This document shows, one piece after another, positions 11,120 to 62,054 of a stretch of 64,000 nt of DNA (position 1 is its first letter; every line of letters starts with the position of its first letter). A program made the translations under genes and the position numbers. Location of the stretch: IMG/VR virus record IMGVR_UViG_3300044984_001443, positions 5,608 through 69,607 of that record; one strand, 5' to 3'. This stretch comes from a virus. A model generated the notes under the pieces. It did not search any database. It was not told where the DNA came from and saw only the letters and a program-made list of their open reading frames with translations.

Positions 11120-11120
11120 A

Positions 11121-12558: not shown

Positions 12559-12576
12559 CTTTTAAAGGAAACAATC

Positions 12577-13041
12577 ATGGCAACAGGTGACATCAAATGG
12601 ATTTCTGGCGGCTTGCTCGCCATCGGTAACAAGATTCACAACCTCAGCAGCGACACGTTCAAGGTTGGACTGGTGACAAGCGTTGTCACCCCCGCCATTG
12701 CAGACACGGACGGACGCTGGGGCGCAGGCGGCTCAGTTAACTACGCGACCAACCAAGTTACACCGGGCGGTAACTACTCAACGGGCGGGCCGGCATTAGC
12801 GTCTGTAGGCTGGACCAATGTGTCGAATGTACCGACTCTGCGTGCCGATGACGTAGCGATTGCACAGCACGCAAGTAATCCCACCAACGCACGTTGGGGC
12901 ATCATCTACAACGACACCGACGCCAGCAAACGGGCGATTGCCTTCGTTGATCTTGGTTCAGATCGCAACCTCACCACGGGCGCATTCTCCATCGATTTCG
13001 GTGGTGCTGGACGTGACGTATTGACCTTGACGCAGAGCTAA
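12577..13041 (+). CDS. putative virion structural protein
   Basis: HNLSSDTFKVGLV, GNYSTGG, ARWGIIYNDT..KRAIAFVDLG pattern common in phage structural modules. Confidence 0.65.
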   Translation: MATGDIKWISGGLLAIGNKIHNLSSDTFKVGLVTSVVTPAIADTDGRWGAGGSVNYATNQVTPGGNYSTGGPALASVGWTNVSNVPTLRADDVAIAQHASNPTNARWGIIYNDTDASKRAIAFVDLGSDRNLTTGAFSIDFGGAGRDVLTLTQS

Positions 13042-13043
13042 CC

Positions 13044-13490
13044 ATGACCACACTACTTGAAGAACTTACCACCGGACCGCTGGCCGCTGAACTCGCACCG
13101 CATATCGCAGCCGGCGCAGACGGCGTGGTTGCGGCCATTCTCAACCGGGCAGACATTCCCGCAAAGGGCAAAGTGACAAGCCACGACATCCGCCAATATT
13201 TGATGCTTGTGGATTTGCTGATTTCGATAGAAGCCAGCCCGCAGCCGGCTTGCGTCGCCGCAAAACGTGCGATGGAAGTCTTCCCAATCTTCGACCTCTC
13301 CAACCCGATGATTCTAGGCAAGTTCACTCAAGTCTTGGACGGTCTGGTGGCGGAAGAACTGATTCCAGATTTCACTGAAGTTCACAAACTCACGATTCTG
13401 AGTCTGGCAGATACGTTCATCAGCAGGGCGGAACAAGCAGGACTCGGTAACGTGACCATCGAACAAATCGCGCAAGCGACAAGGGGCTAA
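13044..13490 (+). CDS. hypothetical protein
   Basis: ORF in operon; C-terminal SRAEQAGLG.VT motif. Confidence 0.6.
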   Translation: MTTLLEELTTGPLAAELAPHIAAGADGVVAAILNRADIPAKGKVTSHDIRQYLMLVDLLISIEASPQPACVAAKRAMEVFPIFDLSNPMILGKFTQVLDGLVAEELIPDFTEVHKLTILSLADTFISRAEQAGLGNVTIEQIAQATRG

Positions 13491-13493
13491 GCC

Positions 13494-13931
13494 ATGACTA
13501 CTCATACCCTAGCGCAAGGCACGCGCAGCAGTGCTGTTCTAGCACTTGGCACGCTGGCGAGTGCAACCTATGTCACGTCTTCAGCGATTGACCTTGGCGC
13601 AGCGATTCCGATTGATGTGACCTTTGAAGTTGAGGCGAATGCCAACGGCACGCCATCGGGTAACAAACAGTTGATTCTGTTTTGTAAGTTCAGCCTGGAC
13701 AATTCAAACTGGGGGTCTGGCCCGGAAAGCGGAACCACGGCAACGGAAGAAGCCGACCTGCATTTCATAGGCGTGTTACCAATGGTGGATACCAACGACC
13801 ACCGTAAGTTCTTTTCGATCAGCGGATTGCCAACTGCGCGATACATGAAGCTGGTAGCGAAGAATGATCTTGGTGTGGCGTTGACTTCGGGCAACGTCTA
13901 TCAAGCCAATATCTCAGCTAACTCGGCGTAA
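13494..13931 (+). CDS. putative structural beta-sandwich protein
   Basis: ORF in operon, beta-rich composition. Confidence 0.55.
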   Translation: MTTHTLAQGTRSSAVLALGTLASATYVTSSAIDLGAAIPIDVTFEVEANANGTPSGNKQLILFCKFSLDNSNWGSGPESGTTATEEADLHFIGVLPMVDTNDHRKFFSISGLPTARYMKLVAKNDLGVALTSGNVYQANISANSA

Positions 13932-13934
13932 GCA

Positions 13935-14780
13935 ATGTCGTCGTTGATTTTGCCTCGGAGGTTTACGCAGCAACCGCAGGGGGCTGTTGAGGTTGCTGAT
14001 AGCTTAAAAAATGGTTCTATTTTTCTGCTTAATCCTGCGTTATCTCAGCCAAATAGACACATAAATTTAGTTGGAAAAAACCCAATCACGGTAGTTGGAA
14101 CGACACCAACAGCGGGTAATGTAATCACTCCTATCGGAAAAGGGCTGCAGTTCCATCCCGCTGGAGGGAGTAACGGAATTCCAGCGTTGTCTGTTTCTGC
14201 TACCGCATTGGATATAACAAAAGACCTTACCTATTTTTGGATTGGGTATCCTTCTAACGTAACGGGAACGTGTGAGCTACTAGCTAGGGGCACTGAATCA
14301 GGTAATTGGTCAATTAATTTTGGCATCTCATCTACTACTCGCGTATATGCTACTTACGTTGACAACCCACCAACGGCAGGATACACAGCAGCGTTAACAA
14401 GCCAAAGTTTTGCGATTGGTAAACTTGCTGCTGTTGCGTACCGTAGGTCGGCCAATGTTATTTCTGTTTTTGATGGCGTGGCAAAGGGTAAGGCATCAAC
14501 TACAGGAACAAACGCAGGATTTAGAAATACCACCAACACTCTTGTTTTGGGTGGCGGTGGGGTAACTTCAACACCATCACTGCACGCAAAAACAGTATTT
14601 GCGTTTGCCGTTAATTACGATATACCTGATGGCGAAGTTTTTTCTATCCTCGCAAATCCCTGGCAAATCTTCAAACCCCGCAAGAGTATCCTCTATTTCG
14701 ACGCCCCATCATTCCCCGTTCTATCCTCCCTAACTGCCAGCTATATCACCAGCAGCGGCGGTCGATTGACTGCGAACTGA
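13935..14780 (+). CDS. ConA/LamG-like lectin domain protein (putative receptor-binding)
   Basis: N-terminal LILP.RFTQQPQG and C-terminal LANPWQIFKP flanking a beta-rich core. Confidence 0.55.
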   Translation: MSSLILPRRFTQQPQGAVEVADSLKNGSIFLLNPALSQPNRHINLVGKNPITVVGTTPTAGNVITPIGKGLQFHPAGGSNGIPALSVSATALDITKDLTYFWIGYPSNVTGTCELLARGTESGNWSINFGISSTTRVYATYVDNPPTAGYTAALTSQSFAIGKLAAVAYRRSANVISVFDGVAKGKASTTGTNAGFRNTTNTLVLGGGGVTSTPSLHAKTVFAFAVNYDIPDGEVFSILANPWQIFKPRKSILYFDAPSFPVLSSLTASYITSSGGRLTAN

Positions 14781-14781
14781 C

Positions 14782-15927
14782 ATGCCGCAAACTTTATACA
14801 TCGTCACCTATCCCGCAGGCGGCGGAACACCGTCAAATGCGCAGATCGTCGCAGGGCAGAACGCATCCGGTGCAGCAGCATCATGGGCGGGTAATGCGAC
14901 GTGGACAGGATCAGGTCAGTATCTAGAGGCGACCGGGCTTTCAGCATCGACGGAATACGATAGTGCGGCCGTAATCTATGACGGCACGACGTATTCCAAT
15001 GTCGTTGAGGTTAGCGGGACTTGGACGACGCTGAGTTCTGGCGTCACAGTCACCTGTACCCCCGGCGCAACCACTGCCGCAGGTATTCAGGCCGGCATAT
15101 CGCAGGACATTACCCTTGCGACCAATCTTGGCAACGCAGTTGCAGCAGGTACAACAGCATCCGTCGCACAAGCTGTCGGCATCGCTTGCTCTCCCGGCGC
15201 AGCTACCGCAGCGGGCATCACCGCAGGCGTCACGCAGGCCATCGCCCTCGCCGCCACGTTAGGTAATGCCACCGCAGCGGGTACACATTCGGCAATCCAG
15301 CTAGGTTCTGACACCAACATCATCGCTGTCCCCGGAGCAGCGGTCGCGGCAGGCATACCCGCTACCGTCACGCAGCAAACAGACATCATCATCACCGCCA
15401 CCGCAGGAAGTGCAACGGCAGACGGTATCAGCGCGGGCGTCACCCAAGCGATCACGATCCAGACCACCGCAGACAACGCACTGGCGGCAGGTATCACGGC
15501 AGGTATTGACCTCGCTGGCGGTATCGACATCACTTGCTCAGTCGGTGGCGCGGTCGCTGCTGGCACTGTGGCGCAAGTCCTTGTCGGGATGACGATTGGC
15601 TGTCAGGTCGGCGATGCGACGGCGGATGGCACAGTAGCGACCATTAGGTTGTCAGATGGCAGCGGCGTCACCCTATCACCGGAAGACATTGCAGCGATTG
15701 CGGATGCCGTCTGGGCACATTCAACCGCCGTAGATTTTGCAGACAAGATGCTGATCTGCTCCCGCATTCTGCGCAACAAGACAGTCACCAACCCAACCAC
15801 AGGCGTGATGACCGTTTACGCCGACGATGGCACGACCCCGTATCTCACCGCTCAACTGCATGAAAACGTCGCTGAGACCCAGACCTATCGCGGTCAGGGG
15901 GCTGAAGTCAGGGATCGCCTACAATGA
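14782..15927 (+). CDS. repeat-rich fibre-like structural protein
   Basis: ~21-aa repeats (I...PG.A.AAG..A.V.Q); C-terminal IADAVWAH and RNKTVTNPTTG.MTVYADDGTT. Confidence 0.65.
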   Translation: MPQTLYIVTYPAGGGTPSNAQIVAGQNASGAAASWAGNATWTGSGQYLEATGLSASTEYDSAAVIYDGTTYSNVVEVSGTWTTLSSGVTVTCTPGATTAAGIQAGISQDITLATNLGNAVAAGTTASVAQAVGIACSPGAATAAGITAGVTQAIALAATLGNATAAGTHSAIQLGSDTNIIAVPGAAVAAGIPATVTQQTDIIITATAGSATADGISAGVTQAITIQTTADNALAAGITAGIDLAGGIDITCSVGGAVAAGTVAQVLVGMTIGCQVGDATADGTVATIRLSDGSGVTLSPEDIAAIADAVWAHSTAVDFADKMLICSRILRNKTVTNPTTGVMTVYADDGTTPYLTAQLHENVAETQTYRGQGAEVRDRLQ

Positions 15928-16412
15928 TTGTATCCCGTGGTTATGGTCTTCCACAGGTTGGTTCAATTGTCGCCAATGGACTTGGTCTTAAACCGCTTGA
16001 CGCCGCTATGCAGCATTCAGGTGTAGTGCGTTTGTGGATGCACGAATTGTACGCTCAGTCCATTGACGAAGATCATAAGAAACGTAAAATCGGTGCTTAT
16101 GCTGAACAACCGAAGGTTGAAACGCCAAAAGCCGCAAAACCAGTGCAAAGCAAGCCAAAAACAGCAAAACCCAAGCCTACCAGACAGCCAGCAAGCCGTG
16201 TTGAGCAAGTCCGCCCTACCTACCCTATACCCCGCGTTGCTCAGGTTGATGTTTTAAAAGGACTGGAAGAGGTTATCAATCATCTTCCGTTGCCAAACTA
16301 CAGCAAATTACTGAATCTTCCTAAGAACGTCAATAAACCTTTGGAAGAAAACGTAGTTCAACTAAAGCGCAGGAAGAAGGAAGAGGAGTGGTTGCTATTG
16401 CTCGCTGCGTGA
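15924..16412 (+). CDS. hypothetical protein
   Basis: MIVSRGYG start; C-terminal RRKKEEEWLLLLAA motif common in phage head modules. Confidence 0.6.
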   Translation: MIVSRGYGLPQVGSIVANGLGLKPLDAAMQHSGVVRLWMHELYAQSIDEDHKKRKIGAYAEQPKVETPKAAKPVQSKPKTAKPKPTRQPASRVEQVRPTYPIPRVAQVDVLKGLEEVINHLPLPNYSKLLNLPKNVNKPLEENVVQLKRRKKEEEWLLLLAA

Positions 16413-38568: not shown

Positions 38569-38916
38569 GTGTCTAAAGTGTACTGCGTGACTGAACCGAT
38601 CACTTACCGAGATGGTAATCCAGTTCCGTTATTTGATATTACGCCAGCGATTGAATATGGTGAGATTGAGATTTTGACTCGTCATAATCAGTCGATGCAA
38701 TTCAGCGTTCCAATGATTAGAAGTTTGCGCGACAAGTTGAAGGATTTCAATGACAATGATTTCATTCTTCCTGTTGGTGACCCGATAACTATTGGAGCAG
38801 TCTGCGCGGTTGTAGCTGATATCAATGGTGGTTATTACAAGGTGCTCAAGTGGGATAAGAGAACTCGCAAGTACATGCCGATTGAAATTCAAGTGTGGGG
38901 TAGTCAACTTTCTTAA
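38569..38916 (+). CDS. conserved phage hypothetical protein
   Basis: DITPAIEYGEI, LKDFNDNDFILPVGDP, LKWDKR..KY.PI. Confidence 0.7.
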   Translation: MSKVYCVTEPITYRDGNPVPLFDITPAIEYGEIEILTRHNQSMQFSVPMIRSLRDKLKDFNDNDFILPVGDPITIGAVCAVVADINGGYYKVLKWDKRTRKYMPIEIQVWGSQLS

Positions 38917-38929
38917 TATAGGTGCTATA

Positions 38930-39439
38930 ATGGAAAAAGAATTTACGTTGAAAGACTTGATTTTTGCTGCAAAGTTGCAACAGGAGCTTGAGAATCAACT
39001 CATTAACGAAGAAAATAGGTTGAAAGAAATAAAAGAACAATTGAACTACCAGCGGTACGAAATTGTTCCTGGGATGATGCAAGAACTTGGTATCAACTCA
39101 TTTGAACTTGACAACGGTTACAAGGTGTCAATCAAGGATGAGTATTACGCCAAGATCCCTGAAGCGTTTCAGTATGAGTGTTTCGAGTGGTTGCGTAAGA
39201 ACGAACTTGACGGCATTATCAAAACTGCGGTAAACATGAATTTTGGCAAGGGTGAAGATGAATCTGCTCAACATCTGATTGATTGGATGACTGAGAACGG
39301 TTTAACACCTAATGTCAAAGAAACTGTTCACCCGCAGACCCTCCGCGCCTTTGTAAAGGAAAGGTTATCTAATGGTTTGGAACTTCCTATTGACTATTTT
39401 GGAGCTTCAGTAGTAAAAACTACTGTTATTTCAAAATGA
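38930..39439 (+). CDS. conserved phage replication-module protein (HNH target gene)
   Basis: IVPGMMQELGI.SF.L.NG, FEWLR.N.L.GIIK, VHPQTLRAFVKE pattern. Confidence 0.75.
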   Translation: MEKEFTLKDLIFAAKLQQELENQLINEENRLKEIKEQLNYQRYEIVPGMMQELGINSFELDNGYKVSIKDEYYAKIPEAFQYECFEWLRKNELDGIIKTAVNMNFGKGEDESAQHLIDWMTENGLTPNVKETVHPQTLRAFVKERLSNGLELPIDYFGASVVKTTVISK

Positions 39440-39996
39440 AACTTATCGATTTGGAAAGATTGAAAGAACTTCTGGACTATGATCCAGAAACAGGTTTGTT
39501 TAAGTGGAAGGTTCATTTAAAATATTCTCCAAGATACGAAGGTGACTTGGCAGGTTACAATAATGAAGGTTATGTTAAGATAACCATCGACGGCCTATCT
39601 TATAGAGCACATCACTTAGCATGGTTTATAACTACTGGAAATTGGCCCAAGTTAGAGATTGATCATATTAATGGTGACAAATCTGACAATTCAATCTCTA
39701 ACCTCAGAGATGTGACCAGAATTGTCAATATGCACAACAAAGGTGAATACAAAAATAACAAAACAGGATACACAGGTGTTCACTGGTATCCTAGATATGA
39801 AAAGTTTGCAGCACAGATAAGAACTAATGGTAAGTGTAAGACGTTAGGTTATTTTGAAACCGCTGAAGAAGCTCACGAGGCTTATCAAGAAGCCAAACTG
39901 AAACAACACCCTTCAGCGTTTGTTAAAGAACGTATGTCGGCAGGTCTTGAACTACCTGTTGACTTTTCGGAGCCTCTGTCGTTAAAACGACGGTGA
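39436..39996 (+). mobile_element. free-standing HNH homing endonuclease with AP2-like domain
   Basis: LLDYDPETGLFKW, YRAHHLAW, IDHINGDKSDNSISNLR, NNKTGYTGVHW...LGYFETAEEAHEAY; AT-rich codons. Confidence 0.9.
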
Positions 39997-40007
39997 TTTC
40001 GAAGTAA
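39916..40007 (+). pseudogene. orphaned original 3' end of gene 38930-39439
   Basis: encodes AFVKERMSAGLELPVDF(fs)GASVVKTTVISK*, a duplicate of the upstream gene's C-terminus with a 1-nt deletion. Confidence 0.85.
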
Positions 40008-40223
40008 AGACTTTGCTGGCAGGCTGACAATCCTACTGTCGTTAACGGAGCATTCTGCACCTGACTTGTCTAACGGTGTGGCGTTAGTTGTGGAACGTAG
40101 ATCCGGGGCGAGCATAGCCCGATTGGTCACAACGAGTGCCGACTGACCGGCGTAAGCGGTCATTCTTCAGACTGTGGCAAGTTTGGAGTCTCTCCCTTAA
40201 TTGCCAATCAAAAGGAGCCGATC

Positions 40224-41009
40224 ATGGCGAAAACCGAAGTTGCTGTAAAAGAAAACACCGCTGTTGCAATTGCTGATGATGTCTATTCGCAGGACGCTGG
40301 AAGTGGTTTTGAGGAAACGTCGCAAGAAAGTTATGCGATTCCGTTTCTGAGTATCCTTCAGTCCGGTAGCCCGCAAGTCAAGAAGTCTGATGGGGCATAT
40401 ATCAAAGGTGCTGAAGAAGGTATGCTATTCAACTCTGTCACCCAGGAATGCTACGGTGAAGAAGGTGTTGAGGTCATCCCCTGTCACTACACGCAACGCT
40501 TTATTGAATGGGGTACGCGTGAATCCGGTGGCGGTTTCTTTGGTGAGCACCTACCATCTGATCCGATTTGCAGCACTACGACTCGTGACGAAAAAGGTCG
40601 CAACCTGTTGCCGAACGGCCATGCTCTCAATGACACGCGCAATCACTACGTCCTGATTCGCCGCAATGGTCAGTTGTCGCCGGCCATCATGAGCTTGAGT
40701 TCCACCCAAATCAAAGCATCCAAGCAGTGGATGTCGATGATGCAAGGTATCAAGCAAAAGAACCCGGCGACAGGTATGTTTGAAATTGCACCGATGTTCA
40801 GCCATGCGTACAAAATCAACACCGTTGCTCAGTCTAACGACAAAGGTTCTTGGTTTGGTTACAAGTTTGCAATGGTCGGTAAGGTGACTGATCAGGCTGA
40901 GTACGAGGAAGCCAAACAGTTCAACCACATTGTCAAGTCTGGTTTGGCAAAGGTCGAGCGCAAGATGGAAACTGAGGCTGCGAGCAATACTGCGACTGAG
41001 AAGTTCTAA
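40224..41009 (+). CDS. putative ssDNA-binding/recombination protein
   Basis: DAGSGFE...YAIPFLSILQSGSPQV, SSTQIKASKQW, SNDKGSWFG; acidic C-tail ending in F; strong codon bias. Confidence 0.65.
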   Translation: MAKTEVAVKENTAVAIADDVYSQDAGSGFEETSQESYAIPFLSILQSGSPQVKKSDGAYIKGAEEGMLFNSVTQECYGEEGVEVIPCHYTQRFIEWGTRESGGGFFGEHLPSDPICSTTTRDEKGRNLLPNGHALNDTRNHYVLIRRNGQLSPAIMSLSSTQIKASKQWMSMMQGIKQKNPATGMFEIAPMFSHAYKINTVAQSNDKGSWFGYKFAMVGKVTDQAEYEEAKQFNHIVKSGLAKVERKMETEAASNTATEKF

Positions 41010-44170: not shown

Positions 44171-44280
44171 GCGAAGCGATAGCGATGTTGAAAGCGGTTT
44201 ATAATCGTCTTATAGAGTTACAAAGGTATGTTCCGGCAGCAGAAGTTAAACGAATTATCGAAAGGTTAGAAAATGACTGA
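44167..44280 (+). CDS. small hypothetical protein (37 aa)
   Basis: manual translation MSEAIAMLKAVYNRLIELQRYVPAAEVKRIIERLEND; GGAG RBS, overlaps on both sides. Confidence 0.5.
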   Translation: MSEAIAMLKAVYNRLIELQRYVPAAEVKRIIERLEND

Positions 44281-45130
44281 AATGGAAGAATTGTTCGTTT
44301 ATTGGGTCAAAGAACGTGAAGCAATCCGTGTCAAGAAAGAAGCGGGTGAGCCAAAACCTTGGACTGATGACCCTATTTTCCAGACTTACAAGTTCACAAA
44401 TGTAAGGCGTGAAGATGATACGGTCAGCAAGTGGATCACTGAAAACTGGATTGAGCCGAACGACCCGCATCCGAACATGTGGTTTGCGATGATCGTTGCA
44501 CGTTTGTTCAATTGGCCTCCGACACTTGAAGAGATTTGTTTCCCGCAAATCACCTTTCCAGAACTTAAAGAAAAGTGGCGGCGCAATCTCAAAGGTCTGC
44601 GTGACATTGGTAAAGAGAAGATCTTCACAGGGGCATATCTTGTTTCAACCAACGGTGTGAAGATGGACAAGATTGATTACATTCTTGACCGCGTGTTGAC
44701 TCCGATATGGGAGAAGGGTCGTGCTCCTAAGATACAGTTGCTAAATGAAAATAAACCAGAATCACTCGAAGGATACTGGACACACTTGCGCCAATTCGAC
44801 GGTCTCGGTAGTTTCATGGCAGGGCAGGTGATTGCAGACTTGAAGTTTACTTCTGAACTCAAAGATGCACCAGACTGGTGGACTTGGGCACCCCTTGGAC
44901 CGGGTTCAATTCGTGGTTTGAATCGTTTTCACGGTCGCCCCGTTGATAAATCGTTGCGCCAAGACAAAGGGCTAGAAGAAATTCGTGAAGCACAGCGATT
45001 GTTGTACGACGAACTTGAATGGCATCTTCCGGCGCACAACATACAGAACTGCTTTTGCGAATTTGACAAATACCTTCGCGTCAAGAACGGCGAAGGTCGT
45101 CCCCGTTCACTTTACCCAGGAGTTAAGTAA
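44273..45130 (+). CDS. aGPT-Pplase1-family DNA base-hypermodification protein (HhH-glycosylase-like fold)
   Basis: EREAIR.KKEAGEPKPWTDDPI.QTYKFTNVRREDD, RLFNWP.TL, GLGSFMAGQVIADL, GPGSIRGLNR, QNCFCEFDKY. Confidence 0.85.
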   Translation: MTEMEELFVYWVKEREAIRVKKEAGEPKPWTDDPIFQTYKFTNVRREDDTVSKWITENWIEPNDPHPNMWFAMIVARLFNWPPTLEEICFPQITFPELKEKWRRNLKGLRDIGKEKIFTGAYLVSTNGVKMDKIDYILDRVLTPIWEKGRAPKIQLLNENKPESLEGYWTHLRQFDGLGSFMAGQVIADLKFTSELKDAPDWWTWAPLGPGSIRGLNRFHGRPVDKSLRQDKGLEEIREAQRLLYDELEWHLPAHNIQNCFCEFDKYLRVKNGEGRPRSLYPGVK

Positions 45131-45468
45131 TGACAATGCAAATCAAAGTTTGCGGTTTACCGTTTGATGTCAACTTTGTTGAAGGTGGTCATGCCGTAAG
45201 TCACAATAAAGAACGTATCCATCTATACGGCGAAGTGTCTTACGAAAATGAGTCAATTCGCATTGACAATACCAAATCGTTGCAGATGATGAACCAAACG
45301 TTCTGGCATGAAGTTATGCACGTTATTGTCGAACGTATGAGTATTCGTGAGTTAATGACTCAAGACAATTGTCACCTTGAAGTACCGATTGATCAAATTG
45401 CCCTCGGTATCTTCACTGTTTTGAATAGTATCGATAAAGATGTAATTGTCTACAAGGAGGAAGCATAA
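45130..45468 (+). CDS. HEXXH zincin-like protein
   Basis: YGEVSY..ESIRID...QTFWHEVMH. Confidence 0.6.
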   Translation: MTMQIKVCGLPFDVNFVEGGHAVSHNKERIHLYGEVSYENESIRIDNTKSLQMMNQTFWHEVMHVIVERMSIRELMTQDNCHLEVPIDQIALGIFTVLNSIDKDVIVYKEEA

Positions 45469-46434
45469 ATGCTAGTTATCCGTGGTCAAAATGTAAACGA
45501 TATCTTGCCAGTCGGCATCATGCACTTGAAGAATGGAGAAAAACGTGACTCAAGAAACGGACCGGTCCTCGAAATCCCAACAACTGTTGCAGTGCATTAC
45601 GACTATCCCGATGAACGTGTCCTCTTCGAGCCTTTGCGAGACGCCAACCCCTTCTTTCATCTCTTCGAAAGTCTCTGGATGCTCGCTGGACGCAACGATG
45701 TGGGATTCCTTAATGAATACAACTCAAGAATGGCGCAGTACAGCGATGACGGGCAAGGATTCAATGCTGCCTACGGGCAAAGACTTCGTTCCGGATTTGG
45801 CTATGATCAACTTGATGAAGTCATTAAACGTCTCAGAAAAGATCCCGACGATAGACAGGTCGTACTTCAAATATGGGATACCGCTGACCTTACAAAAGAC
45901 ACTAAAGATAAAGCCTGTAACCTAGTTATCACCCCGCGCATCCGTAACGGCAAACTCGACTGGACAGTGTTCAATCGTAGCAATGATTATTTGCTCGGCA
46001 TGACCGGAGCTAATGTCGTTCACATGTCGATCATTCAAGAATATGTTGCTCGTATGATCGGTGTGCCAATGGGCAGCTACGAGCAGATCAGCAATTGTCT
46101 ACACGTTTATACAGAACTGACGCCGCATTGGGAGAAGATGAAAGACCTACCTTTGACCGTTGACTGCCCTTACAAATCTGCCCGCGTTACACCGTTCCCA
46201 TTGATAACCAACAAAGAAAGTTGGATGTCAGATCTGTACACTTGGATGGACAAGCTGTGGGGCGGACAGGTTTACGTTGATCCGTTCTTTAACTACGTTG
46301 CGAAGCCGATGGCTATCGCGCACCGGGCACACAAGGATGGGCGCAACGGGTTACAATATGTAAACGCTATACAGGCAACCGACTGGAGATTAGCTTGTGA
46401 ACAATGGCTTACTCGCCGTGAATCAAGTGTTTGA
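45469..46434 (+). CDS. thymidylate synthase-family enzyme, probably dUMP hydroxymethylase
   Basis: SRNGPV, RDANPFFHLFESLWMLAGRND, AYGQRLR, KDKACN (catalytic Cys), NRSND..LG..GANVVH (Asn at the dUMP-specificity position). Confidence 0.85.
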   Translation: MLVIRGQNVNDILPVGIMHLKNGEKRDSRNGPVLEIPTTVAVHYDYPDERVLFEPLRDANPFFHLFESLWMLAGRNDVGFLNEYNSRMAQYSDDGQGFNAAYGQRLRSGFGYDQLDEVIKRLRKDPDDRQVVLQIWDTADLTKDTKDKACNLVITPRIRNGKLDWTVFNRSNDYLLGMTGANVVHMSIIQEYVARMIGVPMGSYEQISNCLHVYTELTPHWEKMKDLPLTVDCPYKSARVTPFPLITNKESWMSDLYTWMDKLWGGQVYVDPFFNYVAKPMAIAHRAHKDGRNGLQYVNAIQATDWRLACEQWLTRRESSV

Positions 46435-46504
46435 AGATTGTATGCAAAACATTTCAAACACAATTGAAAAGAATATTAACAACACCCTCGCTAAAGGACC
46501 ATTT

Positions 46505-47035
46505 ATGTCAGCAAATGATAAGCAAATCGGCGGCAACCACTATGATAAAAGTGGTGAGCAACATTGGGATCGTATGTTCCGCTTGTATGGACGAGGTTAT
46601 TTTGTCGGATGTTCGACAGGTTATATTGAACGTTACCATTTGAAGAACGGTAAGCAAGATCTTAAGAAAGCCATCCACTTCATTCAGAAGTTGATTGAAC
46701 TTGAGTATCCTGAAGAGAAGGAAAAAGGTTTAGATATAGCTTTGAAAGAACCTGCTAACTGGGATGAATTCTACGCAAAACAGAGTTCCGAACCGATTTC
46801 CGATATTCTTAAAGAATTGGATAGTATGGCGAGAGAAGTTGCAGGTATTCCCGACCATCTCAAAGAGTTCGTTCCTACCGACCGGCAGAAAGAAGTCGCT
46901 GCAAAGTTCGAAGATCTACGCGAAAAACACATGAATGCCATCAGCCCGATGATGCAAAGAATCTTGGAAGATAAAGAATGGGACGTTGACGCCGATGAAC
47001 CGTTACCCAACGGTTATGTAAACCAAGACAAATAG
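46505..47035 (+). CDS. DUF3310-like protein
   Basis: ANDKQIGGNHY...QHWD...YIERY..KNG.QDLKKA.HFI.KLIE. Confidence 0.75.
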   Translation: MSANDKQIGGNHYDKSGEQHWDRMFRLYGRGYFVGCSTGYIERYHLKNGKQDLKKAIHFIQKLIELEYPEEKEKGLDIALKEPANWDEFYAKQSSEPISDILKELDSMAREVAGIPDHLKEFVPTDRQKEVAAKFEDLREKHMNAISPMMQRILEDKEWDVDADEPLPNGYVNQDK

Positions 47036-47047
47036 TTGTGGTAATAT
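47019..47047 (+). promoter_or_regulatory. extended -10 promoter TG-G-TAATAT followed by a hairpin
   Basis: TGTGGTAATAT; GTTGTGCCG/CGGCACAAC hairpin at 47051-47077; GA 15 nt upstream of -10. Confidence 0.5.
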
Positions 47048-47098
47048 GGGGTTGTGCCGTTTGTATAGCGGCACAACAACTAATCTTATAGGTGATAT

Positions 47099-47263
47099 AT
47101 GAAACATGAGCAAAGTTTGCAGTCGCAAGAAGACGAAGTTATCATTTGCCCAGAATGCGGGTCAGATGATGTTTCTCCGTTGCACTATCAAGGCGATTAC
47201 GCTGTTCCTGAAACGAACTACAATCATTGTAATGAATGCGGTTATTCTTGGGGGTACGAATGA
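47099..47263 (+). CDS. Zn-ribbon protein
   Basis: manual translation MKHEQ...CPECGSDDV...HCNECGYSWGYE. Confidence 0.6.
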   Translation: MKHEQSLQSQEDEVIICPECGSDDVSPLHYQGDYAVPETNYNHCNECGYSWGYE

Positions 47264-47484
47264 TGATCTGTCCACACTGCCACGCAGAAGTTGAAGGTAA
47301 ATGGGTTGACGAAGGTATCGGCGCTTACGAATATTGGGGCGCGAAAGGTAACGATGTGCAAATGGACTTTGTATGTGAAGAATGCGACGGTCAACTAGAA
47401 TCTGAGCAATCGTACAGCGATTACGTTTCTGACATGAAAGCTGACTACGAAATTGAATGTTACCGTGACCGGTGGGACATCTAA
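47260..47484 (+). CDS. Zn-finger protein
   Basis: CPHC...DEGIGAYEYWGAKG...CEEC. Confidence 0.65.
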   Translation: MMICPHCHAEVEGKWVDEGIGAYEYWGAKGNDVQMDFVCEECDGQLESEQSYSDYVSDMKADYEIECYRDRWDI

Positions 47485-47651
47485 TGCAAACCTTCTTACT
47501 GACCATAACACTGACGCAGTTACAGAAGGAACTTCTCCAGGAGATTGTTGAAAAAGAACTGATGAGTATCCAAAGTTCAAACCCTTGGCCCGGTGGAGGT
47601 AAATCTCAAGTAATTATGTCTTTAAAATTCTTACTGGCGAAACTTAAATGA
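47484..47651 (+). CDS. small hypothetical protein (55 aa)
   Basis: manual translation MQTFLLTITLTQLQKELLQEIVEKEL...; TAATG and ATGA overlaps on both sides. Confidence 0.5.
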   Translation: MQTFLLTITLTQLQKELLQEIVEKELMSIQSSNPWPGGGKSQVIMSLKFLLAKLK

Positions 47652-49663
47652 CCGACAAACTCTTCCTCGACCTTGAAGTTTATCCAAACTACTTCCTTGC
47701 CAAACTCATGAACGACGAAGGTCGTTTTCGTGAGTTTGAAATGTATGAAGGGCAGGGATTAGATGTTGTCAAACTTCGCGCACTGCTCAATTCTTACACT
47801 GTTGTCACCTTCAACGGAAATAATTACGATTGGCCGATTCTGTCACTTGCTTTGAACGGTGCTGATAACGAAGCATTGAAAGAAGCTTCCGACGCCATCA
47901 TTGTCAATGACATGAAACCTTGGAACTTCTACAAGCATTTCCGTTGCCAAGCGTTGAGCTATGACCACATTGACATCAAGGAAGTTGCACCCGGCGTCAT
48001 GGTCAGTTTGAAGTTGTATGCAGGGCGACTCCATGCACCAAAGATGCAAGACCTACCTTACGACCCTGATTCATTGTTGACACGTGAACAGATGCAAGCG
48101 GTCAACCTGTATTGTGGTAACGACTTGCATGTTACGAAGCAGTTGTTTGATGCAATCAAAGGGCGTGTGACGTTGCGGGAAACTATGTCAGCAGAATACC
48201 GTACTGACCTCCGCAGCAAGTCTGACGCCCAAGTGGCCGAGGCAGTAATCAAAACGGAACTATTCCGGTTGACCAATAAGAAACTTGTCAAACCTTCAGT
48301 AAAGGAAAAAGAATTCTTTTACAAGGTTCCGGAGTACATGAGTTTTCACACTGACCAGTTGAACAATGTGTTTGAAATGGTCAAACGCAGCCCTTTCACT
48401 GCCAAGACTAACGGTCAGATTGAGATGACCGAGGAACTTGCCAATACGCTGATTCACATCAATGGTACGACTTACAAGTTAGGCATCGGCGGTTTGCACA
48501 GTCAGGAAAGTGAGATCAGCTATCAAGCTGACGATGAGCACATGATCGTTGACCGTGACGTTACTTCGTATTACCCTAGCATCATTCTTAACCAAGGGTT
48601 GTATCCTGAAACCCTCGGTCCGCATCTGTTGGAAGTGTTCAAAGTTCTTGTTGACAGGCGCGTTGCTGCCAAGCGTAAGAACCGTGAACTTAAGAAGTTA
48701 GGTGTGAAGGGTCACACGTACAGAAGTTATTTAGAAAAGTCAAACAAAGATGACGCGTTTTCTTGTACAGAATATAAGGAACGCGTCTCACTCGAACAAG
48801 ACCTTGACTTCGACCGTTCTGTCACTGTTATGGATTCATTGCGAATTACTATTAACGGGGCATTCGGTAAGTTAGGTTCTGTTTACTCTGCATTGTATGC
48901 ACCTGACTTGATGATTCAAGTTACTGTTACCGGGCAATTGACATTGTTGATGTTGATTGAGCGTTTTGAAATGGCGGGCATTAAAGTCATCAGTGCAAAT
49001 ACTGACGGTATTGTGACCCGTTACCCGCGTTCACGGCATGAGGAAATCGCTGCACTTGTTAAGCAGTTTGAACAGGAGACGCAATTTGAATTTGAAGACA
49101 CGCACTATTCGGGACTATATTCGCGCGATGTCAATAACTACATCGCTATCAAGCCAGACGGCGAGGTTAAGACCAAAGGTACGTTCAAAGCAGGAGATCT
49201 TCAGAAGAATACTCAGAACGATATCTGCAACGAAGCGTTGATTGCTTACCTGAAAAACGGTACACCGATTGAAGAAACAATCCGCGCTTGCAAAGACATA
49301 CGAAAGTTTGTTACGGTGCGAACTGTGAAGGGTGGTGGTCAATTCAATCCTAAAGAAGAGCACCCTGTTGTCGCAGCCGTTCGCGCAGTTACAAGCGGCA
49401 AAGAACCACCTGTTCAGAAGTACCTCGGTAAAGTTGTCCGTTGGTACTACGGAACTGAAGACACCGGAACAATCAACTACGTCAAGTCAGGTAACAAAGT
49501 CCCACGAACAGATGGATGTGTGCCTTTGATGGATTTACCGCTTGACTTTCCTAGCAATGTAGACTATAATTTTTACATTAACGAGGTTAATGATTTGTTG
49601 ATGGATATAGGTTTAGTCGCCCGACCACCTGTAGTTAAGAAGACAAGGAGTAAGAAAGTATGA
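47648..49663 (+). CDS. family B-like DNA polymerase with 3'-5' exonuclease
   Basis: ExoI DLEVYPNYF, ExoII TFNGNNYD, ExoIII YCGND, motif A DVTSYYP, motif B RITINGAFGK, motif C NTDG. Confidence 0.92.
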   Translation: MTDKLFLDLEVYPNYFLAKLMNDEGRFREFEMYEGQGLDVVKLRALLNSYTVVTFNGNNYDWPILSLALNGADNEALKEASDAIIVNDMKPWNFYKHFRCQALSYDHIDIKEVAPGVMVSLKLYAGRLHAPKMQDLPYDPDSLLTREQMQAVNLYCGNDLHVTKQLFDAIKGRVTLRETMSAEYRTDLRSKSDAQVAEAVIKTELFRLTNKKLVKPSVKEKEFFYKVPEYMSFHTDQLNNVFEMVKRSPFTAKTNGQIEMTEELANTLIHINGTTYKLGIGGLHSQESEISYQADDEHMIVDRDVTSYYPSIILNQGLYPETLGPHLLEVFKVLVDRRVAAKRKNRELKKLGVKGHTYRSYLEKSNKDDAFSCTEYKERVSLEQDLDFDRSVTVMDSLRITINGAFGKLGSVYSALYAPDLMIQVTVTGQLTLLMLIERFEMAGIKVISANTDGIVTRYPRSRHEEIAALVKQFEQETQFEFEDTHYSGLYSRDVNNYIAIKPDGEVKTKGTFKAGDLQKNTQNDICNEALIAYLKNGTPIEETIRACKDIRKFVTVRTVKGGGQFNPKEEHPVVAAVRAVTSGKEPPVQKYLGKVVRWYYGTEDTGTINYVKSGNKVPRTDGCVPLMDLPLDFPSNVDYNFYINEVNDLLMDIGLVARPPVVKKTRSKKV

Positions 49664-51048
49664 ACATCGCATTAGTCTATCATGAAAGTGGTATTCCCGG
49701 AGGTCACTGTGAATACAGTGACGTTCTGTTGCAAGGGTTGAGAGAAAACGGTGCGAATGTTCGTTTCTTTTACATTAGCCCTAATGTGCAAAATAATGGG
49801 GCGCGTGCTGCCCAAAAGAGCGCGTCTCTGAGCGCTACAGCAGGCGTAGACCAAAAGGGCAATAGGTATACCTATGGTAAAAATGTCGAGTGCTTTTACC
49901 ATAGCGAGACAGGGTTTGTAAAAGAGAAAGACTTGTACGGTAACGCATTTTTGGCAAAACAACTGCGTTCTAAATTGAATCAGTTTGATGTGATCATTTG
50001 GCAAGACCTTGGTGGTTTTAAGAATCCTCATAATGAAAAGAATAAGGACTGGTTGAAACTTGTTCAGCGCAGACCGGGGCAGAAACAGATTGCAATGTTC
50101 CACGACCACGGTGCATTTTTGAGATACCCTTGGTTTGACAAGATTCAAGATCAGTTTGACTTCTTGGTAACGGTACATCCTGCGAGTTACAACATGGGTG
50201 CGAACTTTGATATCCCGCGTTGCATGATCTTGAATCCTCAGTTCTTACCTGATGAGGTGGTTTCTAATTGGCGCAATAGAGACAAGATGACAACGATGTC
50301 CATCGGTGCTTGGAAGGGTTCCAAGAAAATGCACGAAGTTGTTATGGCCGTCCCTTGGATGAATCGTGATATCAAAATAGATATGTGTGGCGATGGTACA
50401 GAGCGCCGGTATTTGACTGCAACTGATAAGTGTAAACCTACCTATATTCGTAACAAACAGACCGATCCTAATTTTACAAAAGAAATGTCTCTTGAAGACG
50501 ATCGTTTTTGGAACCATGCACTGAATCACCCTGGATTCAAATGGCACGGCCCGGTGGATGCGGTAACAAGGGACAACCTGTACGACAACTGTTTCATGTT
50601 CGTTGACCCTGCATGGTATTCTGTAAACGCTAAGATCGATGCTCACTTCTCAAGGGTGTTGGTTGAAGCTATGAAGAACGGAATCGTTCCTTTTGCAAGG
50701 GACTTGGGTTTGGGTTATGGTAACGGTACTGGTAGCATGTTTGTTTCAGGAGAGCATTATGTTAATATCCCTTGGAACGCTACGCCAAAACAGTTCGCTG
50801 ACATTGTCAATAGGTTTATGGAAACCATCAATGAAGGTGAGTACGAACGAATTGTTTCTAACAATCTGAAACTAGTCGGTCAAACAGACTATCGATTGAT
50901 TGGTAAGCAATTTATTGAGGCCATTGAGGGTACTGAAACTCCGGGCTATTATGGAAAATGGGAGATCGGTAAAACTTCTGCAAAGTTTAAAGAAGCTTCT
51001 GATAAACAGTGGTATGGCGAGTCCAAAGGTTTTTGTTTTGAAAGGTGA
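49660..51048 (+). CDS. GT-B glycosyltransferase (putative DNA-modifying)
   Basis: MNIALVY..G.PGG, FHDH, SIGAWKGSKK, C-terminal FVDPA...FSRVLVEAMKNGIVP GT-B signature; coupled to polymerase. Confidence 0.7.
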   Translation: MNIALVYHESGIPGGHCEYSDVLLQGLRENGANVRFFYISPNVQNNGARAAQKSASLSATAGVDQKGNRYTYGKNVECFYHSETGFVKEKDLYGNAFLAKQLRSKLNQFDVIIWQDLGGFKNPHNEKNKDWLKLVQRRPGQKQIAMFHDHGAFLRYPWFDKIQDQFDFLVTVHPASYNMGANFDIPRCMILNPQFLPDEVVSNWRNRDKMTTMSIGAWKGSKKMHEVVMAVPWMNRDIKIDMCGDGTERRYLTATDKCKPTYIRNKQTDPNFTKEMSLEDDRFWNHALNHPGFKWHGPVDAVTRDNLYDNCFMFVDPAWYSVNAKIDAHFSRVLVEAMKNGIVPFARDLGLGYGNGTGSMFVSGEHYVNIPWNATPKQFADIVNRFMETINEGEYERIVSNNLKLVGQTDYRLIGKQFIEAIEGTETPGYYGKWEIGKTSAKFKEASDKQWYGESKGFCFER

Positions 51049-51051
51049 GAC

Positions 51052-52029
51052 ATGTACAACAAAACAGCGATGGTTGACTTCGACGACACGTTATCGTTCA
51101 CAACGAACAGAGACTTTGAAAATGCAAGGTGTGACTACGACGTTGTTGCCAAACTTCATCAGTTGAAAGCACTAGGTTGGACAATTGTTATACAGACGGC
51201 AAGGGGTTATCTTTCTTGCAACGGTGATCGCGCTGCTGCTGATAAGAAGTACCGTGGTCAAATAGAATCATGGTTGAAACAACATGGTGTTCCTTACGAT
51301 GAGCTCACGTTTGAAAAACGCCTTGCCCAACTTTACATTGATGACAAAGCAATGACCCCTGAATCTTTTAAAGATACGGTTTTCACCGAAGAAAAAGGGT
51401 TGTCAGGGGCATATGTAATACGAATTGGTAATCGTATTCATAAGACCTCACCAACTGTAAAGAAAGAAGCCGCGTGGTATGACAAAGCAGGTGGGTTCTA
51501 TGTACCTGATAATCGCATCTTGTGTGGCGAAACCTTGTCAATGGATTTCATTCCGACAAACTCTGGTTACAAGTGGTATCCGATACTAGATGTGTTAGAT
51601 ACGATGTCAATGACAGAAGTCGATTGTAAAGATTGGTCGCATTACATCGATCGTTTGAAAGACCACGCCTCGTTAGCGGGTCTAGACTGCTCAAAAATTG
51701 AGCAACTCGGTATGAAATTTGAAACTAGAGCGAACGAACATCGGAGTTTTTGCCACGGTGACTTCTCTATTGACAATATTATCTGGTTTAACGAACTACC
51801 TTATCTGATTGATCCAATTGATATGAGCGATTCATATTCTTCGTGGGTGCTTGACTACAGTAAACTGATTCAATCTGCTGAACGTGCAGGGGTTGTTATC
51901 AAGACTGAACCACTGTTATCGCAGGATTTCTTAGGTTTCCTTGTGATGAGTCATTGGTTACGCTTGATCAAATATGTTTCAGGTGATCTGAAAGAACGCG
52001 CCATTTTGAAAGTGAAGGTATATGTTTAA
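51052..52029 (+). CDS. fusion of HAD phosphatase (capsule-biosynthesis EcbF/BcbF-like) and APH/choline-kinase-like kinase
   Basis: N-terminal DFDDT, QTARG, WLKQHGVPYDEL.FEK, YIDDKA; C-terminal CHGDFSIDNII..YLIDP. Confidence 0.75.
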   Translation: MYNKTAMVDFDDTLSFTTNRDFENARCDYDVVAKLHQLKALGWTIVIQTARGYLSCNGDRAAADKKYRGQIESWLKQHGVPYDELTFEKRLAQLYIDDKAMTPESFKDTVFTEEKGLSGAYVIRIGNRIHKTSPTVKKEAAWYDKAGGFYVPDNRILCGETLSMDFIPTNSGYKWYPILDVLDTMSMTEVDCKDWSHYIDRLKDHASLAGLDCSKIEQLGMKFETRANEHRSFCHGDFSIDNIIWFNELPYLIDPIDMSDSYSSWVLDYSKLIQSAERAGVVIKTEPLLSQDFLGFLVMSHWLRLIKYVSGDLKERAILKVKVYV

Positions 52030-52456
52030 GAACGCTAGAGCGCTAGGATTGAAAATTGGATTCACCTGCTCAACTTTTGATCTTCTTCACGCAGGTCATA
52101 TTGCAATGCTTGAAGAGGCCAAAGAACAATGCGAATTCTTGATTGTAGGTCTATTGTCTGACCCTACTATCGACAGACCTGATACGAAGAACAAACCTGT
52201 TCAGTCGTTGTTTGAAAGGTGGTTGCAGTTGCAAAGTGTGCGATACGTCGATATGATTGTACCGTTTTCAAATGAAAAGGACATTGTCGACATGTTGTTG
52301 ATAATTAGACCGGACGTTAGGATAGTGGGTGAAGAGTATCGCGGGACAAACTTCACAGGGCACGATCTTCCGATAGAATTGTATTTTAACAAACGCGAAC
52401 ATAGCTTCAGTTCATCCGAACTCAGATGTCGCGTTGTAAATGGAGAAAAGAAATGA
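52022..52456 (+). CDS. tagD: glycerol-3-phosphate cytidylyltransferase-like (HxGH nucleotidyltransferase)
   Basis: FTCSTFDLLHAGH, LIVGL..DPTIDRP..KNKPVQSL.ER, R.HSFSSSELR. Confidence 0.85.
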   Translation: MFKNARALGLKIGFTCSTFDLLHAGHIAMLEEAKEQCEFLIVGLLSDPTIDRPDTKNKPVQSLFERWLQLQSVRYVDMIVPFSNEKDIVDMLLIIRPDVRIVGEEYRGTNFTGHDLPIELYFNKREHSFSSSELRCRVVNGEKK

Positions 52457-53620: not shown

Positions 53621-54075
53621 GTTCTTAGATAAGAGGTTGGCTGAGTTCAAACCTTCAACCAAGTTGGCAGCAGGTTACGATCTTCGTGCTTGCATTGACA
53701 AAGATGTGTGGATTCCACCGGGAGGGCAGGAGAAGATTCCTACGGGGGGTTGCAATGGATATTTCAACTTTGATCGACGATGAAGAAAAGGTTGAAGAAA
53801 TCGTTCCTTGTGCCATCATCATGCCGCGTTCTGGCCTCGGTTGCAAAGGTGTAAAGCCTCGCAATACACCCGGCTTGATTGATGCTGACTATCAAGGTGA
53901 GATCATTGTCTGCTTATACAACGAAGGAAACGATTCAGTTCATATTCAACCGATGGACCGCATTGCACAACTCGTATTCACCCTTGCAATCCACCCGGTA
54001 ATGCAGCAAGTTCAAGAGTTCAGCAATGCGACTGAGCGCGGTGCAAATGGATTCGGAAGTACGGGGAAGCAGTGA
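53610..54075 (+). pseudogene. dut: trimeric dUTPase split by a +1 frameshift in a G6 run (53744-53749)
   Basis: frame 1: AAGYDLRA...KIPTG; frame 2: VAM...PRSGLG, GLIDADYQGEI, DRIAQL, ERGANGFGSTG; removing one G restores PTGVAM. Confidence 0.85.
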
Positions 54076-61330: not shown

Positions 61331-61363
61331 ATGAGCGATTACGAAATGGTTGCGATTCTCTAA
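61331..61363 (+). pseudogene. orphaned original 5' end (MSDYEMVAIL*) of gene 62041-62232
   Basis: strong TAAGGAG RBS; EMVAIL repeated in the downstream gene's N-terminus. Confidence 0.75.
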
Positions 61364-61409
61364 CACTTGTGGTACAATTTACAATGTACCATACTTAATG
61401 GAGAGTATC

Positions 61410-62054
61410 ATGGAATGGAGGTCTTTGGAAGAGTTTCCCAGTTATCAATTTTCAGACACAGGTCTTGTTAAGAAAGGCGACAAGTATGTGAACGTACATT
61501 TCTGGGGAAGATACCCTGCGGTAAGTTTATCAAATGGTTTTATGAGAAAGAGATTCAGAATCCATCGTGTTGTCGCATTGCTGTTTATTGGACCTTGTCC
61601 AGATGGGCAAATGGTTAGACATCTAGATGATGATCCTGAGAACAATAATGTTTCCAATCTTGCTTATGGAACCAGAGAAGATAACATTGCAGATGCCATT
61701 CGTAACGAAAGATTTAAGAAAGGTGACGAACATCATTCTAGAATAAATCCTGAATGTATGGCGAGCGGTGATAGAAATGGTGCAAGAACTCACCCTGAAA
61801 GTTTATCTAGAGGAGATAAGCATTGGACAAAACTCGACCCTGAAAAGTTGGCAAAAGGTAATAAACACGGTTCTAAAACTCATCCAGAAAGAGTGGCGAG
61901 GGGTGAACGGTGTGGCGCATCAAAGTTGACACAAGAGGCGGTTGATGAAATACGAGCTACTGAAAATTACTATGGTTGTGTGAATGCGTTGGCTAAGAAG
62001 TTCAACGTGAATCGGCAAACTATTACAAAGGTCAGAAAACATGAAACATGGTGA
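61410..62054 (+). mobile_element. free-standing NUMOD4-HNH homing endonuclease with C-terminal 15-aa repeats
   Basis: MEWRSL..FP.YQFSD.G (NUMOD4), IHRVVA..FIGP.P, VRHLDDDPENNNVSNL.YGT.EDN, repeats (H/D/N)PE...(R/K/S)G, C-terminal HTH. Confidence 0.9.

Follow-up and report, generated by a model that had tools for sequence, protein, structure and literature searches.

How might a phage that seems equipped to make 5-hydroxymethyl-2′-deoxyuridine (hmdU) elaborate this base in its DNA when the kinase and the amino-acid transferase of phages such as M6 are not found? The question is raised by a five-gene module in a 64,000-nucleotide stretch of viral DNA (hereafter the window), positions 5608-69607 of the 69,607-bp IMG/VR virus record IMGVR_UViG_3300044984_001443, which has direct terminal repeats and a completeness rating of 100%. 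The module combines a HMUDK_hel protein and a ThyA-family enzyme with a GT-B glycosyltransferase (GT), a fused HAD phosphatase and kinase (HADkin) and a nucleotidyltransferase (NT). Sequence comparisons, structural models and analogy with characterized systems make it probable that the DNA of the phage contains glycosylated hmdU, made by a route that bypasses both kinase and amino-acid transferase. All five genes are present as open reading frames (ORFs):

44273..45130, + strand: HMUDK_hel / aGPT-Pplase clade-1 protein, 285 amino acids (aa) (PF18723, E 1.2e-42)
45469..46434, + strand: ThyA-family enzyme with a deoxyuridine monophosphate (dUMP) hydroxymethylase signature (PF00303, E 1.5e-22; phrog_5131, E 5.6e-108)
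49660..51048, + strand: GT4-like GT-B glycosyltransferase, 462 aa, predicted DNA 5-hmdU glycosyltransferase (AlphaFold2 model, Foldseek and gene neighbours)
51052..52029, + strand: HADkin, HAD phosphatase (residues ~1-115) followed by an APH-like sugar kinase (~120-325) (TIGR01689, E 8.6e-19)
52022..52456, + strand: NT, cytidylyltransferase-fold nucleotidyltransferase of the superfamily of HldC/RfaE domain II, TagD and ethanolamine-phosphate cytidylyltransferase (ECT), 144 aa (PF01467, E 6.6e-14)

Nearly all genes of the window lie on the + strand, with terminase, capsid and tail genes followed by the replication module. The GT start overlaps the stop of the family B DNA polymerase gene (PolB), HADkin begins 3 bases after the GT, and NT overlaps HADkin by 8 bases. 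The region has no close nucleotide relative among 50,697 phage records: megablast gave zero matches, and distant blastn returned nothing beyond short PolB pieces.

The modified base would be supplied by the ThyA homologue, which scores 80.4 bits with PF00303 (cut-off 24.3) and whose catalytic Cys150 aligns with C146 of the E. coli enzyme. Its residues D147, Cys150, D173 and N182 fall at E. coli L143, C146, D169 and N177, giving a D/C/D/N pattern identical to that of the M6 gp58 homologue and confirming the Asn that a sequence-only reading of the window had placed at the dUMP-specificity site. Control classes separate in one alignment: HMUDK_hel-linked enzymes and M6 read D/C/D/N at these positions, four loci with an enzyme of the deoxycytidine monophosphate (dCMP) type read D/C/D/D, and that of Serratia phage 92A1, an arabosyl-5-hydroxycytosine (5hoC) phage (PMC13326640), reads E/C/N/D. 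Asn at N177 versus Asp distinguishes dUMP from dCMP enzymes, an acidic residue at L143 accompanies hydroxymethylation rather than methylation, and D169N is the mark of 5-hydroxy-dCMP synthases (PMC13326640). Because D169N and N177D are both absent, the enzyme is not expected to be a 5-hydroxy-dCMP synthase. Its residues point instead to the dUMP hydroxymethylase subtype and to a predicted role in making 5-hmdUMP.

The second gene of the hmdU pair encodes a full-length HMUDK_hel protein (146.7 bits versus a cut-off of 25; profile positions 2-277 of 281 covered; no second Pfam match at E<=10). Its earlier assignment to the aGPT-Pplase1 family holds, and the label is a synonym rather than an error, since a ViI-like homologue is annotated as 'alpha-glutamyl/putrescinyl thymine pyrophosphorylase clade 1'. 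The protein is homologous to M6 ORF055/gp55 (tblastn, 33% over 96% of the query) and to YuA gp14. Pfam assigns M6 gp51 to PF18724 'ADDT' (amino-acid:DNA transferase, the former aGPT-Pplase2), gp54 to the PF18748 kinase and gp55 to PF18723. The accessible part of Lee et al. (PMC5889632) describes M6 gp51 and gp55 as two aG/PT-PPlase paralogues. A model of the HMUDK_hel protein (predicted local distance difference test score, pLDDT, 79) gave weak Foldseek rows (all E >=0.1) to helix-hairpin-helix (HhH) DNA glycosylases and PaMx11 gp46. VIA-align placed PaMx11 gp46 first (8z2n_B; Z 10.5, root-mean-square deviation 4.3, 226 residues aligned), followed by DUF2419 (Z 9.6) and Mag/AlkA/EndoIII (Z 7-8.7), on a scale where Z under ~13 counts as weak for helical proteins. 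The HMUDK_hel profile found nothing meaningful among PDB sequences (best E 0.12), and its hhalign comparison with two ADDTs fell short of significance (prob 1%, E 0.05). E263, K266, Y267 and a GPG..G hairpin are among the invariant positions, and Cys262 is found in six of seven sequences (Tyr in L012). HMUDK_hel may be an HhH, DNA-glycosylase-like paralogue of the amino-acid:DNA transferases and may serve the GT as a partner that recognizes or flips hmdU.

The company that HMUDK_hel keeps varies from phage to phage. Among 80 loci from a HMUDK_hel alignment search, a ThyA homologue occurs in 62, the kinase in 35, ADDT in 16 and this GT family in four, and GT and kinase are found together in none. 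The role of HMUDK_hel may be general to hmdU DNA, because it is present with a ThyA homologue whichever decorating enzyme accompanies it. In the complete 69,607-bp genome studied here, neither the 5-hmdU DNA kinase (PF18748) nor ADDT (PF18724) gave a match at E<=1, with M6 and RHph_TM26 controls positive for both, and M6 gp54 and gp51 used as protein queries had no match either. The lack of a P-loop 5-hmdU kinase, remarked on in the sequence-only reading, is borne out on this complete genome. Five related records lack both families as well, and two of these reach at least 99% completeness. That reading had likewise found no pyridoxal phosphate (PLP) or radical S-adenosylmethionine (SAM) gene, and none was returned by Pfam scans of the submitted ORFs, in which small or gene-overlapping minus-strand ORFs were not all scanned. 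The same scans gave no SIS isomerase or HD nucleotidase domain, and no Tet_JBP gene was seen in those of the window.

In place of a kinase and an amino-acid transferase, the module offers a glycosyltransferase. Its Pfam Glycos_transf_1 (PF00534) score lies below the cut-off (20.3 versus 26.4 bits), which relatives pass (for example, 44.1 bits in L010). The AlphaFold model (pLDDT 82; predicted template modelling score 0.83) has the two-Rossmann GT-B fold, and Foldseek matches it to the GT4 GT-B enzymes PimA (E 8e-12), SdgB, HepE, BshA and MshA, confirming the original GT-B call. Close relatives are few. A tblastn search of the same 50,697 phage records gave zero matches, only nine relatives appeared at word-index level, and a single-sequence locus search gave one near-identical fragment. 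A GT profile reached 240 representatives at E<=1e-3 and 127 at 1e-30.

A locus search with the close GT set (A1) gave 12 viral loci. HADkin and NT adjoin the GT in all 12, and the locus includes HMUDK_hel in 10 and ThyA in eight, usually in the order HADkin-NT-GT-HMUDK_hel-ThyA. HMUDK_hel is missing from a 5.6-kb fragment and from a contig rated 46% complete, and the complete genome L010 has ThyA, but away from the module. Since L006-L009 are near-identical to each other, as are L014 and L015, these loci represent about eight independent contig types. The search for the same gene combination in other phages, which the sequence-only reading had suggested, thus found the five genes side by side in about eight viral contig types. 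The backbones that carry them differ, with a Pol III alpha polymerase in L006, for example. In L014/L015 the GT and HMUDK_hel form a single 837-aa ORF (L014:9986-12499), and an 829-aa representative (P0018) spans the GT profile. Because the two proteins are fused in one lineage, HMUDK_hel and GT would be expected to act together in this module.

A sister phage, L098, is closely similar in PolB (88% identity), primase (89%), helicase (89%), HMUDK_hel (72%) and ThyA (75%). Between PolB and a PD-(D/E)XK nuclease, it carries a TET-associated glycosyltransferase (TAGT; PF20691, E 4e-12) and a radical SAM/SPASM gene (together L098:15005-16790), which replace GT-B, HADkin and NT. This swap suggests that the slot holds interchangeable DNA-glycosylation cassettes in this phage lineage.

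The wider GT clade (A7, 220 viral contigs) connects the enzyme to another source of hydroxymethylpyrimidine. When 80 of its loci were fetched and scored with seven home-made profiles, the GT stood alone in 73, with NT in three, with a HADkin fragment in one and with HMUDK_hel and ThyA in three, two of which are the L014/L015 contigs. By Pfam, a Tet_JBP dioxygenase gene lies directly upstream of the GT in all seven loci sampled from the 'GT alone' and 'GT+NT' groups, with NT between the two genes in two of the seven. The accessible text of PMC13229309 likewise describes a clade of phage T-dioxygenases that frequently adjoins glycosyltransferases. The family would be a partner of hydroxymethylpyrimidine-making enzymes by either route, because it is linked to hydroxymethylase-type ThyA or to Tet_JBP.

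The seven sampled loci belong to T4-like uncultured phages (L190, L220, L239, L241, L249, L227 and L240), in which the GT (~9001-10300) directly follows Tet_JBP. Scans of ±4.5 kb around their GT showed no C5 methyltransferase. They are candidates for base-J-like glycosylated 5-hydroxymethyluracil (5hmU) made post-replication.

Taken together, the conserved five-gene neighbourhood, the GT::HMUDK_hel fusion, the exclusion of kinase and ADDT, the TAGT swap and the GT-Tet/JBP linkage argue that the genes are functionally linked. The coupling that had been proposed from position is supported by these five kinds of comparative evidence.

HADkin and NT would supply the activated donor. The predicted HAD-phosphatase/kinase fusion is confirmed by TIGR01689 and by an APH-like half with invariant motifs. 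The N-terminal HAD domain matches PDB entries 1xpj (E 1.9e-23) and 9iqw (E 7.3e-20), the C-terminal part is APH/choline-kinase-like, and the motifs DxDDT, TARG, K, DD, HGD..N and IDP are invariant in all 11 aligned sequences. By hhalign, the HAD half is homologous to the AfhF-like protein of 92A1 (prob 99.4, E 3.3e-21, 33% identity), and the kinase half is weakly related to the C-terminal domain of an AfhE-like protein (prob 78, E 1.7e-5). For NT, the cytidylyltransferase fold named in the sequence-only reading stands (PF01467), while its specific likeness to TagD does not: its NCBIfam scores favour RfaE domain II (TIGR02199, 85.6 bits, E 2.8e-24) over TagD (60.8 bits). Its profile matches ECT (3elb, 1e-19), HldC (5x9q, 4e-13) and TagD (1coz, 6e-13) in the PDB. 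NT is 48-73% identical among module loci. Its family occurs in at least 594 viral contigs, and HADkin adjoins it in 22 of 80 fetched loci.

Of the two donor types that had been left open, a nucleoside diphosphate (NDP)-sugar is favoured over a cytidine diphosphate (CDP)-polyol, because the HAD half has a homologue in AfhF and the kinase half in the C-terminal domain of AfhE, and because a cassette of the same architecture gave heptosyl-5-hydroxymethylcytosine (5hmC) in the work of Pyle et al. discussed below. By the same analogy, the sugar is probably a heptose.

The same donor supply also occurs beside other genes. In L038, L040, L043 and L044, the cassette runs from a short dCMP-hydroxymethylase-type ThyA through dCMP deaminase, HADkin, NT and a 410-470-aa protein to a C5 cytosine methylase homologue. 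The 410-470-aa protein of L043 (cassette L043:5395-11002) matches the T4 DNA alpha-glucosyltransferase (PF11440, E 7e-15). This class is probably a sugar-on-5hmC pathway.

What the donor carries can be read in other ways. A sugar activated as proposed might not be a heptose at all, as with the arabinofuranose of the RB69 type or another pentose or hexose, an option we regard as unlikely but consider seriously. Both halves of HADkin have homologues among the UDP-arabinose enzymes (AfhF for the HAD half, AfhE for the kinase half), which speaks for it, as does the statement, in the accessible part of the preprint by Pyle et al., that sugar identity followed the E. coli metabolite pool. On the other hand, NT is HldC/RfaE-domain-II-like and not of the MurU/LicC type as in AfhE, and the Pfam scans of submitted ORFs found no arabinose-5-phosphate isomerase, whereas 92A1 encodes one. 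A more radical departure would have the donor be a CDP-activated alcohol or polyol phosphate (of the CDP-glycerol or CDP-ethanolamine type) and the product a phospho-alcohol or polyol-phosphate hmdU. The top PDB match of the NT profile, an ethanolamine-phosphate cytidylyltransferase (E 1e-19, with TagD at 6e-13), and weak choline-kinase matches of the kinase half lean this way. An alcohol route from kinase to cytidylyltransferase, however, has no use for a HAD phosphatase, which is essential in bisphosphate sugar routes, and the HAD half here is an AfhF homologue. The transferase is GT4-like, with no TagF/LicD-type enzyme among the Foldseek matches listed, and the same architecture yielded heptose in the accessible account of Pyle et al. 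Together these points leave the CDP-alcohol donor highly improbable.

Equally in question is what receives the sugar. GT4 enzymes and HldC/GmhB-like steps are part of lipopolysaccharide (LPS) core synthesis, and GT, HADkin and NT might form a moron whose target is not DNA but host LPS or capsule, or a virion protein, and which lies in the replication module by chance. The L005 fragment, which has the cassette without HMUDK_hel or ThyA, fits such a moron. The position of the cassette does not: the GT start overlaps the PolB stop, and the cassette adjoins HMUDK_hel and ThyA in unrelated backbones and is fused to HMUDK_hel in one lineage. With a TAGT DNA glycosyltransferase in the same slot of sister phage L098 and Tet/JBP beside seven of seven sampled GT family members, a non-DNA acceptor appears very doubtful. 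Alternatively, HMUDK_hel itself could act on DNA, coupling to hmdU a small-molecule glycoside built by the GT in the style of BshA or MshA, GT4 neighbours that take small acceptors. Its top structural match is the 5-PmdU glycinyltransferase gp46 (the Z of 10.5 being weak for helical proteins), the pair C262/E263 is conserved (Cys in six of seven sequences, Glu in all seven), and the sole hhalign segment puts Cys262 on the ADDT Cys. That segment is not significant (prob 1%, E 0.05), however, and Cys is replaced by Tyr in L012. A kinase that could furnish hmdU with a leaving group is missing, and the GT family is found beside Tet/JBP without any HMUDK_hel, so that a catalytic HMUDK_hel of this kind seems most improbable.

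Several further observations weigh against glycosylated hmdU made by this module. The phage is an uncultured IMG/VR record, known here from sequence alone. Pfam scans of submitted ORFs found no sugar isomerase, deoxynucleoside monophosphate kinase or dTTP-excluding enzyme in the genome. The GT4 relatives BshA and MshA glycosylate small molecules, and 77 of the 80 wider-clade GT loci lack HMUDK_hel, showing that the GT family does not depend on it. Half of the HMUDK_hel loci (40 of 80) contain neither kinase nor ADDT nor this GT, and L005 (a 27-kb, 46%-complete contig) has GT-HADkin-NT without HMUDK_hel or ThyA. NT falls below every NCBIfam cut-off, and its PDB profile places it as close to the phospho-alcohol cytidylyltransferases ECT and TagD as to HldC. 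Lastly, the 'same cassette' as contig 53 of Pyle et al. is a likeness of domain architecture only.

For the preferred reading, glycosylated hmdU made without a kinase, the following route can be proposed. The ThyA homologue, judging from its residues, would turn dUMP from a dUTPase-like enzyme into 5-hmdUMP, which would be incorporated instead of thymidine. The HAD/APH fusion would add a phosphate at the anomeric position of a sugar phosphate taken from the host and strip the distal phosphate, and the cytidylyltransferase-fold enzyme would convert the sugar-1-phosphate to an NDP-sugar, most likely an NDP-heptose; both steps are suggested by homology and by one published reconstitution of a cassette of like architecture. 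The fold and gene context of the GT4-like GT-B enzyme suggest that it moves the sugar onto the 5-CH2OH of hmdU in DNA post-replication. HMUDK_hel would assist it, probably by recognizing or flipping hmdU, and this is the least certain step. In its most specific form, which we advance tentatively and would put below an even chance, the reading holds that heptosyl- or glycosyl-oxymethyluracil replaces thymine in the virion DNA of this phage and of about eight related contig types. It would be a kinase-free counterpart of base J derived from pre-replicative hmdU, with HMUDK_hel as an hmdU-recognizing partner subunit of the GT that is sometimes fused to it.

Should this be correct, a sugar-bearing thymine would join the list of phage DNA bases, and hmdU with HMUDK_hel would form a chassis for swappable cassettes: kinase and amino-acid transferase, GT-B and donor supply, or TAGT and radical SAM. 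It would also give the HMUDK_hel family its first functional context and provide 5hmU-directed glycosyltransferases, possibly useful in 5hmU labelling and mapping. Modified bases determine, among restriction, CRISPR and glycosylase defences, those that a phage evades and those that it sets off.

The module is interspersed with and followed by other features of the window:

45130..45468, + strand: 112-aa ORF with an HExxH motif (phrog_1233, E 3.7e-10; weak Peptidase_M78/IrrE match, E 0.018)
47648..49663, + strand: family B DNA polymerase (phrog_1252, E 9.7e-193), its stop overlapping the GT start
49542..49570, + strand: promoter-like site TTGACT-17-TATAAT, sigma-70-like (11 of 12 hexamer positions; consensus match only)
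53686..54075, + strand: dUTPase / dCTP-deaminase-like enzyme (PF00692, E 7.4e-22)

The dUTPase-like enzyme is the likely supplier of dUMP, and a homologue adjoins the module in L004, L006-L009, L012, L014 and L015. The promoter-like site falls within the 3′-terminal part of the polymerase gene, ~90 nt ahead of the GT start; a terminator scan was uninformative (8 found versus 9.5 expected). The HExxH ORF sits between HMUDK_hel and ThyA with overlapping stops and starts and is outside the conserved module, being absent from sister phage L098, where ThyA directly follows HMUDK_hel.

Module-bearing phages and the sister phage carry additional genes nearby. An extra tailoring gene stands between HMUDK_hel and GT in two of them: radical SAM/SPASM in L010 (L010:11408-12376) and an FkbM-type methyltransferase in L235 (L235:8294-9004). 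A GmrSD N-terminal domain gene (PF03235, E 1.2e-15) directly follows the ThyA homologue of another module-bearing phage (L013:13296-13856), and L098 has a pyrimidine-dimer-glycosylase-like gene (L098:12395-12853). The genome under study has four HNH endonuclease genes, two in the window (39436-39996 and 61350-62054) and two at L003:908-1477(-) and 4833-5333(-), with an AP2 domain in two or three of them. They are likely homing endonucleases. Window positions 10001-16000 are GC-rich (0.54-0.57 versus ~0.45 elsewhere), with ORFs that have no Pfam matches and with two ORFs on the minus strand (11942-12632). Immediately upstream of the primase, 38569-41009 holds three successive Pam3 gp32-, gp33- and gp34-like genes, all from families of unknown function.

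Set beside the known hmdU phages M6, PaMx11, ViI and PhiW-14, the locus shares the ThyA subtype, a HMUDK_hel gene (M6 gp55) directly upstream and a position next to a family B polymerase. It differs in that no 5-hmdU kinase, ADDT, PLP or radical SAM gene was found in the searches described above, and the base would be decorated by a glycosyltransferase that brings its own donor supply. SP-15, YerA41 and Carin-5 also have a sugar-bearing thymidine replacement and, next to the polymerase, GT and sugar-nucleotide genes. They use a pentyl linker, a PolA-UDG polymerase and other enzymes, and the accessible part of PMC12686479 describes no module of hydroxymethylase-type ThyA and HMUDK_hel in them. 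The predicted product class, a sugar O-linked to 5-hydroxymethyluracil in DNA, is that of base J (beta-D-glucosyl-hydroxymethyluracil) in kinetoplastids and of the phage T-dioxygenase/GT clusters (PMC13229309). In base J synthesis, JBP oxidizes T in DNA and JGT has a GT-A fold, according to the accessible text of the Pyle et al. preprint, whereas the present locus would draw hmU from the pool of nucleotides, its GT has the GT-B fold and Pfam scans of the window showed no Tet_JBP.

Closer on the side of the donor is the arabinosyl-5-hydroxycytosine pathway of RB69, DLP3, HY126 and 92A1, which has an AfhF-type HAD phosphatase and the AfhE kinase to which HADkin is related. In the Afh route, arabinose-1,5-bisphosphate formed by a kinase loses its 5-phosphate to a phosphatase and is then turned into UDP-arabinose by a nucleotidyltransferase (PMC13326640). 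The GT4-like GT-B transferases of both systems share the PDB neighbours 2gej, 3mbo and 3c4q. Here, by contrast, ThyA lacks D169N/N177D, NT (PF01467) belongs to another fold class than the MurU/LicC type, no isomerase was found in the submitted ORFs, and kinase and phosphatase are fused. The ADP-heptose route follows the same kinase/phosphatase/nucleotidyltransferase logic as the Afh enzymes.

The nearest counterpart is contig 53 of Pyle et al., a Subclass III DNA-glycosylation cluster that encodes a bifunctional HAD/APH protein together with a cytidylyltransferase and a GT-B (bioRxiv 10.1101/2023.12.21.572611; cited in PMC13229309 as Cell Rep 2024). In the accessible portion of that preprint, all three proteins are required for mono- and di-heptosyl-5hmC in E. 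coli, heptosyl-5hmC being seen at 449 u. In the accompanying survey, GT-B genes turn up close to ThyS more frequently than close to 5mYOX, and the genes around them include APH phosphotransferases. As far as this text goes, the two loci agree, compared by domain architecture only, in a HAD+APH fusion, a CTP_transf_like protein and a GT-B resembling BshA/MshA, and in a phage-made sugar nucleotide that is, or here would be, transferred to a hydroxymethylpyrimidine in DNA. They part at the acceptor: that of contig 53 is 5hmC, made post-replication by a methyltransferase and TET, while the base here would be made pre-replication by a ThyA of the dUMP hydroxymethylase type, in a module that includes HMUDK_hel. 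The novelty claimed in the sequence-only reading is therefore narrowed. The donor cassette with a GT-B was already known on cytosine, and literature searches of titles and abstracts gave, among the matches listed, no description of a hmdU/HMUDK_hel/GT module; what is new is the predicted thymine (hmdU) version.

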